Part shown: piece after piece, positions 1 through 4,874 of the stretch
Layout: each line of letters begins with the position of its first letter
Numbering within the stretch: the first letter of the stretch is position 1
IMG/VR virus record: IMGVR_UViG_2713896900_000005
Location: 1-6,925 of that record
Source of the DNA: a virus
Taxonomy: Duplodnaviria > Heunggongvirae > Uroviricota > Caudoviricetes
DNA length: 6,925 nt
Direction: 5' to 3' (one strand)
The notes under the pieces: model-generated
Database searches by the model: none
Seen by the model: only the letters and a program-made list of their open reading frames with translations
Told to the model about the DNA's origin: nothing
Position numbers and translations under genes: made by a program

Positions 1-70
1 GTACAGTTTTGTATCGGCTTACCTGCACCATCTTTCAGTACACCTGAAATCTGTACTGCCATACTCACTC

Positions 71-101
71 CACAAATAAAAAAGGCGCCATTTCTGGCGC
101 C
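71..101 (-). terminator. Rho-independent terminator downstream of J
   Basis: Perfect GC-rich inverted repeat GGCGCCA / TGGCGCC (84-90 and 95-101) with a 4-nt loop (TTTC). Read on the minus strand it is followed immediately by a T-run (plus-strand aaataaaaaa at 74-83 gives TTTTTTATTT). It lies about 20 nt downstream of the J stop codon (122-124). On the plus strand there is no U-tract after the stem, so it looks unidirectional. Confidence 0.75.
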
Positions 102-121
102 CGTTACGGGTTATAAATATT

Positions 122-3100
122 TCAACGGATACTGATGCCGGAAGCCGCTTTTTTGGTCACAATCACCGTACAGTCGGTGATATTGCCTGCCCCCTGATTC
201 CCTTTCTGGAAAATCTTAAACTCCAGAGTGACGCTTCCCCTGCCACCCAGCATATCAATAACCGCACTGTAACTACCGGGAATGGCCCCTTTAGTTTCTC
301 TGGATGCGATTAATACGCCGTTTTTGCGAACTTCAAAACCATAACCCGTGTATCGCGTGCCTCCGGGGTTATTTCCGCTCCCCGGATCGGTATACGCTAT
401 ACCGTTAAAAATAATGGGCGGAATAATAATCTGACGGTCAAAGTTATGATCATCGCTGATGGTGACTGTAACCGTCCCGTCTGGCGTTTCCGTGTTACCC
501 CACGTACCGACTTTTTTCGGGAAGGCTTTTGATACAGCTTTAACGAAATCCCCTCTGACCTGGGTCGCCTCCAGCATGCCCTTAATCGTACAGTTCTCAC
601 TTATCGTGACATTGTTGAGCGTCCCGGAGTTCGCATTCACGTTACCGCTGATATCAGCGTTTTTCGCCGTCAGCCGCCCGTCCGGTGTCAGGGAAAATGC
701 CGGAGGATTGCCGCCGCTGGTGATGGTCGGGGCCGTCAGACGCTTCAGGAACACGTCGTTCATGAATATCTGATCGCTCTGACCAACAAACATTGGTCGT
801 GTGTTGCCATTAGACGGATCAATAAACGCAATACGGTTAGCGGCGACAAGAAACTGGCTCAGCTTGCCTTCCTCCGTGTCCTCCATACTGAGGCCAATAC
901 CCGCGACATAATGTTTGCCGTCTTTGGTCTGCTCAATTTTGACGCCCCACATGGCATTCCACTTATCGTTGGCGTCCTGCCACTCTTTCGAAAACTCCTC
1001 CAGTTTGCTGGCGTTATCCTCCGTCAGCTCGACTTTTTCCAGCAACTCCTTGCCGAGATGGGATTCGGTTATCTTTCCTTTGAAAAAATCCAGGTAACCT
1101 TCCGCATCATCGCTCGCCCGACCGACGGCCTCCACGAACACCGATTTGCCAACGGTGTTCACACTGCGGATATAAAAGTAATAATCATGGCCCGGTTTGA
1201 TATTGATACTGGCGGCTATCCAGTACATCCCCGTACCAAGATAGCGGGCTGTGGTTTCAACCTGCCGGATATCGGCAATCCGCTTTTCCGAAAACCAGAA
1301 CTCAAACTGTACCGTCGGGTCATAAACCGCAAGATGCGGCGTGGCGGTTATCTGAAAATAACCCGGCGTCAGCTCAATCTGTGACGGCGCTGCCGGTGCG
1401 GCAATCCTGAACGATACCGACGCCGGGTCACCCTGCTGTCCCCACGCATTTACCGCCCGGACTGTCAGCCTGTAGTTCCCCGGCGCCAGTTGCCTGAAAC
1501 GATATTCGGTTTCCGTCGTCCGGGCCGTGCTGACCAGCCGCTCACTGCCGTCATCCGCTGCCACGGTCAGGCGAAGCATAAAGCTCACGCCCTTCACCAC
1601 CTTCGGCGTGTCCCATCGCGCCAGCACCTGATATTCCCCGCTGTCTGCCGAGACTTCGGCGGTCAGGTGCTGCACTGCTGGCGGCGTGACACCATTCACC
1701 GTGCCGCTCTGGTCGCCGTCAAAGTGCGCCCCGTTATCCACGATGGCCTCTTTTTCCGGTACATGCTGCACGGCGGTGATGGCATACGTGCCGTCGTCGT
1801 TCTCACGGATACTCACGCAGCGGAACAGGCGCTGGCGCAGCGTCGGCAGCTTCAGCCCCCACACGCTGTATTCGGCAACGCCGTCAGGGACCCGACTCAC
1901 TTTCACCTGCACGCCATCGGTGACAGACTGAACCTCCACGCTGACCGGATTGCCGCTTCCGTCAACCAGGCTTATCAGCGTGGTACCGGAGGCTGGCAGC
2001 ATGATTTCACGGTCGAGCGTCAGCGTCCGGGTCTGGCTGTTCACCGCAAGCACGCGCCCGCCGGTGCTGATACCGGCATAGTCATCATCGCAGATTTCAA
2101 TGACATCGCCCGGTACATGGCGAAGCCCTTCTGCGCCCACGCTGAAGTCCACGGTCTGCGTTTCCAGCAGTTCTGTTTTAATCAGCCACAGCCCGGCTCG
2201 GTGTGCCTGCCCCCGGCTGGTACAGCCAAAGGCATCCATCTTCGTGACGTTACGACCGTAACGGGCAATGGCCTGCGTGTCCTCCACAAGCTCTGTTGCC
2301 GTCTCCCAGCCGTTGTCCGGGTCAATCCAGTTCACCTCAACGGCATTATGGCGGTCCTTCAGGGCGCTGAAGCTGTAGCGGAACGGCGCGCCATCATCCG
2401 GCATCACCACATTACTGCGGTTATAGGTCCACACCTTATCCGATGGCCGGTCCTGCACGAACGTCAGCGTCTGCCCGTTCCATACCGGCATACAGCGCAT
2501 CGCCGAGCAGAAATCACTGAGCACATCCCACGCCCGGCGCTGCGTGGTCAGGTACGCATTACAGGTGATGCGCGGCTCCGTGCCACCAGAGCCATCCGGT
2601 ACCGACTGGTCGCAGTACCGACCGATGGCATACAACGCCCATTTATCCACATCCGCTGCACCAAGACGTTTCCCCATGCCGTAGCGCGGGTGGGTCAGCA
2701 TGTCCCACAGACACCAGGCCATGTTGTCGCTGTACGCTGGCTTGAACGTTCCGTCCCAGATACCGCTGTATTGCCTCGTCTGCGGGTTATAGTTCGACGG
2801 CACCTGCAGAATGCGCCCGCGAAGATGATAATTACGGCTCACCTGCTGACTGCCGAACTGTTCCGAGTCCACCTGCACGCCGACCAGTGCCGTGTTCGGG
2901 TAGCACTGTTGCACATCGATGATTTCGGTGTATGACGACCAGAGCGTTTTGTTCTGCAGCTGGTCTGTGGTGCTGTCCGGCGTCATCCTGCGCATCCGGA
3001 TATTAAACGGGCGCGGCGGCAGGTTACCCACCACCACCGAGGCCAGATACTGCGAGGTGGTTTTGCCCTTAATGGTGATGTCTTTTTCCGTCACCCAGCC

Positions 3101-3535
3101 ACCATTACGTTGTATCTGAACCAGCAGGCGAACTTCCGACGGATTCCGGTCCCCCTTTGAAGTGGTTTCCACCAGTGCCTGCACACCGAAGGTAAAGCGC
3201 AGACGGTCGATGTTTGCCGATGTGATGGTCCGGGTAATCGGCGTGTCGTACTTCACCTCCGTACCCAGCACCGTCTCGGAGCCGGAGGATTCAAATCCCT
3301 CCGGCGGTGTCTGCTCCTGCTCACCTGCCCGGAACACCACCGTGACACCGGAGATATTGGTATTCCCCTCACTGTCCAGCACTGGCGTACTGTTCAGCAG
3401 CACACTTTTCAATCCATCCACCGGACCTTCAATCGGCCCTTCACTGATGGCATCGAGCACACTCAGCAACTGCGTGGATTTCAGGTTGTCCTTCGCTTCG
3501 CGCGGGGTATGCCCCTTACTGCCACCTTTACCCAT
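122..3535 (-). CDS. J: Phage tail tip host-specificity protein J (central tail fiber), 1137 aa
   Basis: Single 3414-nt ORF. The translation is recognisably collinear with lambda gpJ over most of its length (N-terminus [24 protein letters not shown]..., internal motifs such as [39 protein letters not shown] and [15 protein letters not shown]). Length is close to lambda J (1132 aa as I recall). It sits after H-M-L-K-I as in lambda. The last ~150 residues look diverged (see findings). Confidence 0.95.
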
Positions 3536-3668
3536 AGATAATTCCCGAAACAGTAATCAATTTTATGCGAACCATATAACGACCGCTTGCAACAAAAATG
3601 CATCTGTTGTATTTCATTTGTTAAAACTTAAATCACCTTGATTAACAACACGAAATGACGGGGTATTT
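3536..3668 (+). promoter_or_regulatory. AT-rich intergenic region upstream of sodC; probable site of the sodC promoter and RBS (also holds the J translation initiation region on the minus strand)
   Basis: A 133-bp AT-rich non-coding spacer between the divergent starts of J (minus, ATG at 3535) and sodC (plus, ATG at 3669). A weak purine/G-rich stretch (gacgggg, 3657-3663) lies 5 nt upstream of the sodC ATG. Possible -35-like hexamers (TTGCAA 3587-3592, TTGTTA 3618-3623) have no convincing -10 partner at 16-18 bp, so no specific promoter is called. Confidence 0.3.
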
Positions 3669-4190
3669 ATGATAAAAAAAATACTTGCTGTAACTGCGCT
3701 ACTTAGTGGAGCCGTAATGGCTGATACAATGACGATCCCTGTAAATCTCGTTTCCTCAGAAGGAGTAGGGGAAAATCTAGGGGAAATAACTATTTCAGAA
3801 ACCAGCTACGGATTGCTGTTCACTCCTCATCTGAAAGAACTGCCACCAGGGTTACATGGCTTTCATATCCATGAAAATGCCAGTTGTAATCCCGGTCTGA
3901 TTAATGGAAAAAAAGTGCCAGCTCTTGCTGCCGGTGGGCATTATGATCCTGAACAAACAAATAAACATCTTGGGCCGTACAATCCGGAGGGCCATCTGGG
4001 TGATCTACCAGCACTCTATGTCAACTCAGAAGGAAATGCAGAAAACCCGGTTCTGAGTCCAAAAATAAAAAAAATAAGCCAGATAAAAGAACGGGCGATC
4101 ATGATTCATGCCGGAGGGGATAATCATTCCGATTCACCTGCTCCTCTGGGGGGTGGTGGCGCAAGACTGGCATGCGGAATAATTAAATAA
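3669..4190 (+). CDS. sodC: Periplasmic copper/zinc superoxide dismutase, 173 aa, phage moron
   Basis: The translation has an N-terminal signal peptide (MIKKILAVTALLSGAVMA, predicted cleavage before DTM) and the hallmark bacterial Cu,Zn-SOD motifs: metal-ligand histidines in GFHIHE, GGHYDP, HLGDLP, IHAGGDNHSD, and the C-terminal GGGGARLACGII with the disulfide cysteine. It matches E. coli chromosomal SodC in length (173 aa) and motif order but not in sequence identity. The gene is on the opposite strand to all flanking tail genes and is visibly more AT-rich (about 38% GC in the first 60 nt by hand count, against about 58% in a J sample). Confidence 0.93.
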   Translation: MIKKILAVTALLSGAVMADTMTIPVNLVSSEGVGENLGEITISETSYGLLFTPHLKELPPGLHGFHIHENASCNPGLINGKKVPALAAGGHYDPEQTNKHLGPYNPEGHLGDLPALYVNSEGNAENPVLSPKIKKISQIKERAIMIHAGGDNHSDSPAPLGGGGARLACGIIK

Positions 4191-4205
4191 CAAACAGCCT
4201 AAAGC

Positions 4206-4231
4206 AATCACCGTCATAGCTGGCGGTGATT
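4206..4231. terminator. Candidate weak hairpin between convergent sodC and I
   Basis: Inverted repeat AATCACCG (4206-4213) / CGGTGATT (4224-4231) with a 10-nt loop. It lies 16 nt after the sodC stop (4188-4190) and directly abuts the I stop codon (4233-4235, minus strand). There is no clean U-tract on either strand, so if functional it is at best a weak or leaky terminator. Confidence 0.3.
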
Positions 4232-4232
4232 A

Positions 4233-4874
4233 TCAGCGACCAATAACCACAACCTGACCACCATCCCCCTCGTCTGCCGTGCTGATCTCCTGAGAGACCA
4301 CACGTGACCCCACGCGCATTTCACCGTACAGAACAGGCAGAACATTGCCCTGGGCAACCATGTTGTCCAGTGACGAGAAATACGTGTTCTGCTTACCGTT
4401 ATTCGTTGTCTGTGTTCGGGGAGTTTTGGGTCTGGGGGCCAGCATCTGTGCCACACCGCCAAGCGTCATACTGGCACCGAGAGAAAACAGCAGATTACTT
4501 GCCATAATTCCCACCCCAGGCATCCATATAGCAACCGCCATAACAGCTGCGCCCAGCACGGCCTGAAACACGCCGCCACTTTTGGCTCCCGCCAGGCGCG
4601 GCACAATATGGATCACGGCACCATTTGCCAGCGGTTCATTAAGACGGGCTGATAATTCAGTTTCACCTGTATCACGCCCGGCAATGCGTACCTGATACCA
4701 GCCGTCGCTCAGTTTCTGACGAAACGCCGGGAGCTGTGTGGCCAGTGCCCGGATGGCTTCAGCCCCCGTTTTCACACGAAGGTCGATGCGGCGGCCAAAT
4801 CGTTGTAAATCCCCGTAAAGGCAGATGCGTGCCATGCCCGGTGACGCCAGAGGGAGTGTGTGCGTCGCTGCCAT
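4233..4874 (-). CDS. I: Phage tail tip assembly protein I, 213 aa
   Basis: ORF immediately downstream of K and overlapping it by 103 nt in a different frame, which is the K/I overlap length I recall for lambda. It contains a hydrophobic, glycine-rich segment (VFQAVLGAAVMAVAIWMPGVGIMASNLLFSLGASMTLGGVAQMLA) typical of gpI-family proteins. It is about 10 residues shorter than lambda gpI as I recall it (223 aa). Confidence 0.88.
   Translation of the reverse strand: MAATHTLPLASPGMARICLYGDLQRFGRRIDLRVKTGAEAIRALATQLPAFRQKLSDGWYQVRIAGRDTGETELSARLNEPLANGAVIHIVPRLAGAKSGGVFQAVLGAAVMAVAIWMPGVGIMASNLLFSLGASMTLGGVAQMLAPRPKTPRTQTTNNGKQNTYFSSLDNMVAQGNVLPVLYGEMRVGSRVVSQEISTADEGDGGQVVVIGR

Follow-up and report, generated by a model that had tools for sequence, protein, structure and literature searches.

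The C-terminal end of the tip attachment protein J encoded on the analysed DNA (residues 986-1137) very probably represents the exchangeable receptor-binding domain of lambda-like tail tips in the form known from phage 434 ('h434'), with OmpC as its most probable receptor. The domain starts at a sharp sequence break relative to lambda J, is nearly identical to its counterpart in phage 434, and belongs by family and fold to the C-terminal receptor-binding domains of gpJ. The feature as such is already known: the h434 host-range allele was described long ago and is part of an established modular system, and exactly the same J protein has already been deposited at NCBI (WP_059274998.1, "phage attachment tail tip protein J [Escherichia albertii]"). 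Beyond annotation its significance is small: OmpC and not LamB is indicated as the probable receptor of this E. albertii prophage, and the window J adds one more case of the exchange of J specificity regions as cassettes, which is known from lambda-like Escherichia phages.

Gene J and its domain architecture

The window, i.e. the whole stretch of 6,925 nucleotides that was analysed, corresponds to the entire contig BBVK01000042.1 of assembly GCA_001514685.1. On its minus strand, the last part of the tape-measure gene H is followed by M, L, K, I, J and the first 21 codons of stf. The tail gene order H-M-L-K-I-J-stf was found by gene calls and Pfam searches on the contig and also in complete E. 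albertii genomes. Gene J is the sole long open reading frame over the region flagged in the initial annotation; its residues 986-1137 are encoded by positions 125..580, while 122..124 represent the stop codon. Two short open reading frames on the plus strand or in other frames (397..600 and 459..773) are located inside J and lack support as genes. The following features are referred to below:

1..62, minus strand: first part of stf, the side tail fibre gene, truncated at the contig end; gene call with a match to PF08400 phage_tail_N
83..102, minus strand: intrinsic-terminator-like hairpin and T run directly past the J stop codon; 8-pair stem with 6 G-C pairs, tail TTTTTATTTG
122..3535, minus strand: gene J, tip attachment protein/central tail fibre; intact open reading frame of 1137 amino acids
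125..580, minus strand: 434-type receptor-binding domain cassette, J residues 986-1137; defined by identity to 434 J, Pfam and predicted fold
248..250, minus strand: CTG codon of Leu1096, which replaces the proline of the DMPxGxG motif in this sequence only; seen in an alignment of 41 domains
584..595, minus strand: mosaic joint, codons N-C-T-I, the last stretch that lambda shares before the cassette; from the three-way DNA alignment of window, lambda and 434
585..851, minus strand: distal shaft segment, J residues ~896-984, unlike lambda and 434; from the same three-way DNA alignment
3669..4190, plus strand: sodC, Cu/Zn superoxide dismutase of 173 amino acids (Pfam Sod_Cu), in the I-J spacer 3536..4232
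4233..4874, minus strand: gene I, tail protein I, intact; from comparison with 434 I

The Pfam families FNIII-A_GpJ, Phage-tail_3, Ig_J, Ig_J_second, Phage_Tail_Tip and Ig_GpJ_C were found in this order along J, all above their cut-offs. Hence, J shows the full lambda-type gpJ domain order that ends in the C-terminal receptor-binding domain. The last of these families, PF12421 Ig_GpJ_C, comprises the C-terminal receptor-binding domains of J and matches residues 1001-1136.

Break between the window J and lambda J

In global alignments with lambda J (NC_001416), 939 of the residues 1-985 are identical (95.3%), whereas identity drops to 57 of 158 aligned columns (36.1%) for residues 986-1137. The contrast between the two parts is highly significant (Fisher test, p = 1e-66), and over the whole protein the identity amounts to 87%. 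From residue 901 onwards, consecutive blocks of 50 residues are 88%, 76%, 44%, 28% and 30% identical to lambda J. On the DNA level, 94.7% identity over the first 470 alignment columns compares with 47.5% past column 741. The break is situated at window positions ~584-595 in the codons for NCTI-K-G, because columns 727-737 of the DNA alignment are conserved in the window, lambda and 434, and from about column 738 lambda departs from the other two. Moreover, the GC content is 0.50 in the cassette compared to 0.58 in the remaining J. The domain is therefore not closely identical to the LamB-binding type represented by lambda J residues ~980-1132, from which it is also separated by four indels.

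The initial annotation had described J as lambda-like with diverged last ~150 residues, a picture that is borne out by the drop in identity at exactly the coordinates flagged there; the 152-residue string it gave is the exact translation of 125..580. Where more than 90% identity to the lambda C-terminus had been named as counter-evidence, 36% was measured.

Upstream of the cassette, the distal shaft segment (585..851) is 83.0% identical to lambda and 82.6% identical to 434 on the nucleotide level, while lambda and 434 share 91.9% with each other in this part. Matches of at least 95% were found in only 10 E. coli records. The segment represents a separate mosaic patch adjoining the cassette.

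Identity to the phage 434 domain

Residues 986-1137 align without gaps to the J protein of phage 434 (OL657226) and are identical at 145 of 152 positions (95.4%). The cassette DNA is likewise 95.4% identical to 434, and the two complete J proteins are equal in length (1137 amino acids) and share 96% identity in a gap-free alignment. The 434 sequence leaves lambda at the same joint between NCTI and KG as the window J, and the four indels relative to lambda are identical in both proteins. The high gap-free identity, the same recombination joint and the same indels assign the domain to the 434 type (h434). The binding-domain allele different from that of lambda, which had been suspected initially, is thus the allele of 434. 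[quoted passage not shown] Furthermore, it has been reported that indels at lambda residues 1012, 1048-49, 1077-78 and 1107 define natural J lineages, and that the J "specificity region" (lambda 960-1132) recombines as a module of its own (Maddamsetti et al. 2018; PMC6646904). The four indels that distinguish the window J from lambda fall at these four sites.

The seven differences from the 434 domain (window residue first) are T1049D, L1096P, G1097S, R1099G, I1108V, Q1110H and G1115R. Six of these positions, namely 1049, 1097, 1099, 1108, 1110 and 1115, vary within the 434 class. At position 1096, proline is present in all 40 other aligned receptor domains, which belong to several classes, and leucine occurs only in the window; proline is also found there in 434, lambda, A8 and two syntenic J genes from complete E. 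albertii genomes. The Pro1096Leu change is the sole unexplained detail of the domain.

Fold of the domain

When the domain was used as query in a PDB sequence search, only gpJ chains were retrieved, with A8 gpJ 713 (9wca, E 9e-49) as best match and lambda gpJ (8xcj, 8iyk) at about 1e-41 to 2e-41. An AlphaFold2 model of residues 946-1137, calculated for the monomer from a 41-sequence alignment, is nearly all beta strand (mean pLDDT 79.7). The top Foldseek matches of this monomer model are the lambda central fibre in its closed (8xck) and LamB-bound (8xcj) states and A8 gpJ in the closed state (9wca) and bound to EDL933 OmpC (9wcb), with E values from 4e-16 to 6e-14 and query TM-scores of 0.63-0.64. 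The next match after these four gpJ structures has an E value of 9e-4. The information on the A8 gpJ-OmpC pair is taken from the PDB titles of 9wca and 9wcb and from the Eligo preprint (bioRxiv 10.1101/2022.09.30.509847). The domain is predicted to be the Ig-like receptor-binding beta-sandwich at the C-terminus of gpJ, superposable as a monomer on the solved gpJ domains. Structure prediction, proposed as a check by the initial annotation, has thus yielded the gpJ receptor-domain fold with lambda and A8 gpJ as closest structures. The A8-type OmpC-binding domain (9wca) was also considered as the identity of the window domain and was rejected, because only 62 of 154 columns (40%) are identical.

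Prevalence of the cassette

Megablast matches to the 459-base cassette are present in 2112 of the 5426 complete E. coli genomes (39%), mostly with 90-99% identity, whereas the equivalent segment of lambda was found in 98 of the 5426 genomes, always with at least 99% identity. The five genomes listed with the lambda segment all belong to laboratory strains (K-12, B or DE3). The 434-type allele is far more common than lambda's own among E. coli genomes, a point that was absent from the initial annotation. Given the rarity of the lambda domain, a J that differs from lambda represents the normal and not an unusual situation.

A translated search with the 152 residues against 50,697 phage records gave 74 matches with 90-99% identity and 169 below 60%, but none between these values. 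This bimodal distribution indicates that the domains exist as discrete cassettes. The group with 90-99% identity includes 434, lambda h434 imm21, mEp460, cdtI, phage 2851 and many Stx1a- and Stx2-converting phages; the domains of lambda, phage 21 and Fels-1 are 36%, 40% and 45% identical to that of the window, respectively. The best protein matches (99%) are named Escherichia albertii, and the 434-type class was found across E. coli, Shigella and E. albertii.

Genes around J and syntenic prophages

The region 1..121 between J and stf harbours no lom gene, unlike the situation in lambda, 434 and Stx2_EH1846. On the other side of J, sodC separates the tail genes I and J, is encoded on the other strand and has a low GC content (0.44). 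The gene is found in the same slot and orientation in the Salmonella phage Fels-1 and in the Stx2a phage Stx2_EH1846, whose products show 64% and 57% amino acid identity to that of the window, respectively; SodCI of Gifsy-2 is 62% identical. With the DNA of the I-J spacer and sodC, no megablast match was obtained among the 5426 complete E. coli genomes; relatives appeared at the protein level only, and the exact sodC protein occurs on 16 contigs named E. albertii. Tail protein I is 10 residues shorter than the 434 protein, whose length (223 amino acids) equals that of the lambda protein. Its ends are identical to 434, while its middle part (~68-135) is diverged, resulting in 80% overall identity.

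Complete E. albertii genomes have a gene for a 437-aa fibre protein and a Phage_fiber_C gene after J. In CP117620 and CP030781 (1588..6394 of the locus), genes for side tail fibre, fibre assembly, an NleG-family protein and a large protein with pentapeptide/SopA domains were found 3' of J, and CP030781 has in addition a Peptidase_M85 gene. On the basis of this gene content, the prophage appears to carry type III effectors, like those of EHEC and EPEC. In E. albertii CP117556 (4173..9867 of the locus), J ends after residue 1083 and is directly followed by HTH_Tnp_1, TnpB_IS66 and DDE_Tnp_IS66.

Receptor and proposed mode of action

Outer-membrane protein Ib is the porin now called OmpC. Phage 434 uses protein Ib, according to the account of Hantke 1978 as cited in bioRxiv 10.1101/2022.09.30.509847, and OmpC is also bound by lambda when it carries J of 434 (PMC11101478). 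Because the 434 domain is 95% identical to that of the window, its use of OmpC makes this porin the most probable receptor of the window domain as well, and close homology to 434 likewise supports the initial suggestion of a receptor different from that of lambda. The receptor is unreadable from the class alone, since the classes of 434, A8 and phi330 are mutually only ~35-40% identical and all use OmpC. The nearest relatives among sequenced phages, namely mEp332, the PhiR series, ev243 and Kati, are 97% identical; a literature search for their receptor assignment did not find the source papers.

In lambda, four distal loops per trimer domain insert into LamB, whereupon the distal ends spread, the fibre twists and the tail tip opens (PMC11101478). 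We propose that recombination at the conserved NCTI motif has joined a 434-type domain to a J that is otherwise lambda-like. In analogy to the solved lambda gpJ-LamB and A8 gpJ-OmpC complexes, three copies of the Ig-like beta-sandwich would then be located at the end of the central fibre. Their distal loops might enter a porin trimer, most probably that of OmpC, and the binding would be relayed up the fibre until the tail tip opens for DNA ejection. Hence, it might well be possible that the same receptor-triggered opening mechanism applies to the window domain.

As the strands in the model alternate, successive loops should point to opposite ends of the domain. The four loops rich in indels (window residues 1010-1015, 1051-1058, 1081-1086 and 1112-1116) are predicted to be situated at the distal end, while the DDHNFD and DMPxGxG loops would face the fibre; strand alternation in the model, conserved motifs and published indel hotspots form the entire basis of this orientation. 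Residues 1049 and 1115 probably lie in or beside the receptor-facing loops.

Alternative explanations

Small changes in J can shift the receptor, as has been shown for lambda towards OmpF (PMC6646904). It is conceivable that the domain belongs to the 434 class but has acquired a shifted specificity, either for a particular E. albertii variant of OmpC or for another porin such as OmpF. In this regard, T1049 and G1097 set the E. albertii allele apart from most E. coli members, and both residues belong, like those at 1099, 1108, 1110 and 1115, to the variable spots within the class. Moreover, G1115 of the window aligns with lambda H1104 in the indel-rich loop near lambda 1107 that is important for receptor switching, and the engineered gpJ chimeras A8 and 1A2 accept different OmpC variants (bioRxiv 10.1101/2022.09.30.509847). 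However, the domain is 95% identical to 434 with changes that are conservative or at loop edges and include no indels, and the same class is distributed across E. coli, Shigella and E. albertii, which makes such a shift unlikely. Divergence from lambda alone is no proof of a changed receptor, because phage 21 natively uses LamB with a domain that is 40% identical to that of the window, and it can shift to OmpC and OmpF (PMC11336670). Binding of the window domain to LamB despite its divergence is nevertheless hardly credible, since the nearest characterised relative (95%) is the OmpC user 434 and the LamB users are found at 36-40%. Phage 21 had also been considered as an OmpC-using relative and was rejected, because LamB is its native receptor and the use of OmpC is an evolved trait.

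The remaining explanations concern Leu1096, which replaces an otherwise invariant proline, so that the window copy could be impaired. J might be a decaying prophage gene with a non-working receptor domain, in which the damaging Pro1096Leu change would survive because the cargo of sodC and type III effectors ensures that the prophage is retained. Such a view is consistent with the uniqueness of Leu1096 among the 41 aligned domains, given that proline is present in lambda, A8 and the syntenic E. albertii genes, and with the NleG and SopA-like effector genes and sodC carried by the syntenic prophage in complete E. albertii genomes. The J gene of CP117556 is moreover cut by an IS66-family insertion, indicating that the loss of the receptor domain is tolerated in a resident prophage. 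On the other hand, the reading frame of the window J is intact and full length, M, L, K and I next to it are intact as well, with I still 80% identical to 434 I and identical at its ends, and one substitution is no evidence of inactivation, so that decay has to be regarded as quite improbable. The exchange might instead change the way the tail tip works. As judged only from strand alternation, the DMPxGxG loop, which does not vary in any other aligned J receptor domain, would face the fibre, and Pro1096Leu might influence how the trimer packs or how receptor binding signals the opening. In combination with T1049 and G1097, the residues specific to E. albertii, it could then lead to a changed host range or trigger threshold, a scenario to which we assign only a very small probability. 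A 434-type domain that most probably binds OmpC remains the preferred interpretation.

Comparison with known systems

The diverged stretch of the window J lies inside the module defined by Maddamsetti et al. 2018 and represents one more instance of it without any difference. Phage 434 is the closest known system. Its J resembles that of the window in length, joint and indel pattern, and a terminator is annotated at the same place 3' of the J stop codon. The two differ in seven substitutions within the receptor domain and in the shaft at ~896-984, which is only ~85% identical. Furthermore, the window lacks lom after J and carries sodC before J, unlike phage 434, and the host is E. albertii in the case of the window J but E. 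coli in the case of phage 434. The lambda gpJ domain (PDB 8xcj, 8xck, 8iyk) belongs to the same Pfam family, has the same fold and the DDHxFDRQ and DMPxGxG motifs, and likewise ends a nearly identical fibre; however, it is only 36% identical, differs by four indels in inter-strand loops, and uses LamB as receptor. Finally, the A8 gpJ chimera (PDB 9wca, and 9wcb with EDL933 OmpC) shares the fold and probably also the receptor with the window domain, but its receptor domain, with 40% identity, belongs to a different class.
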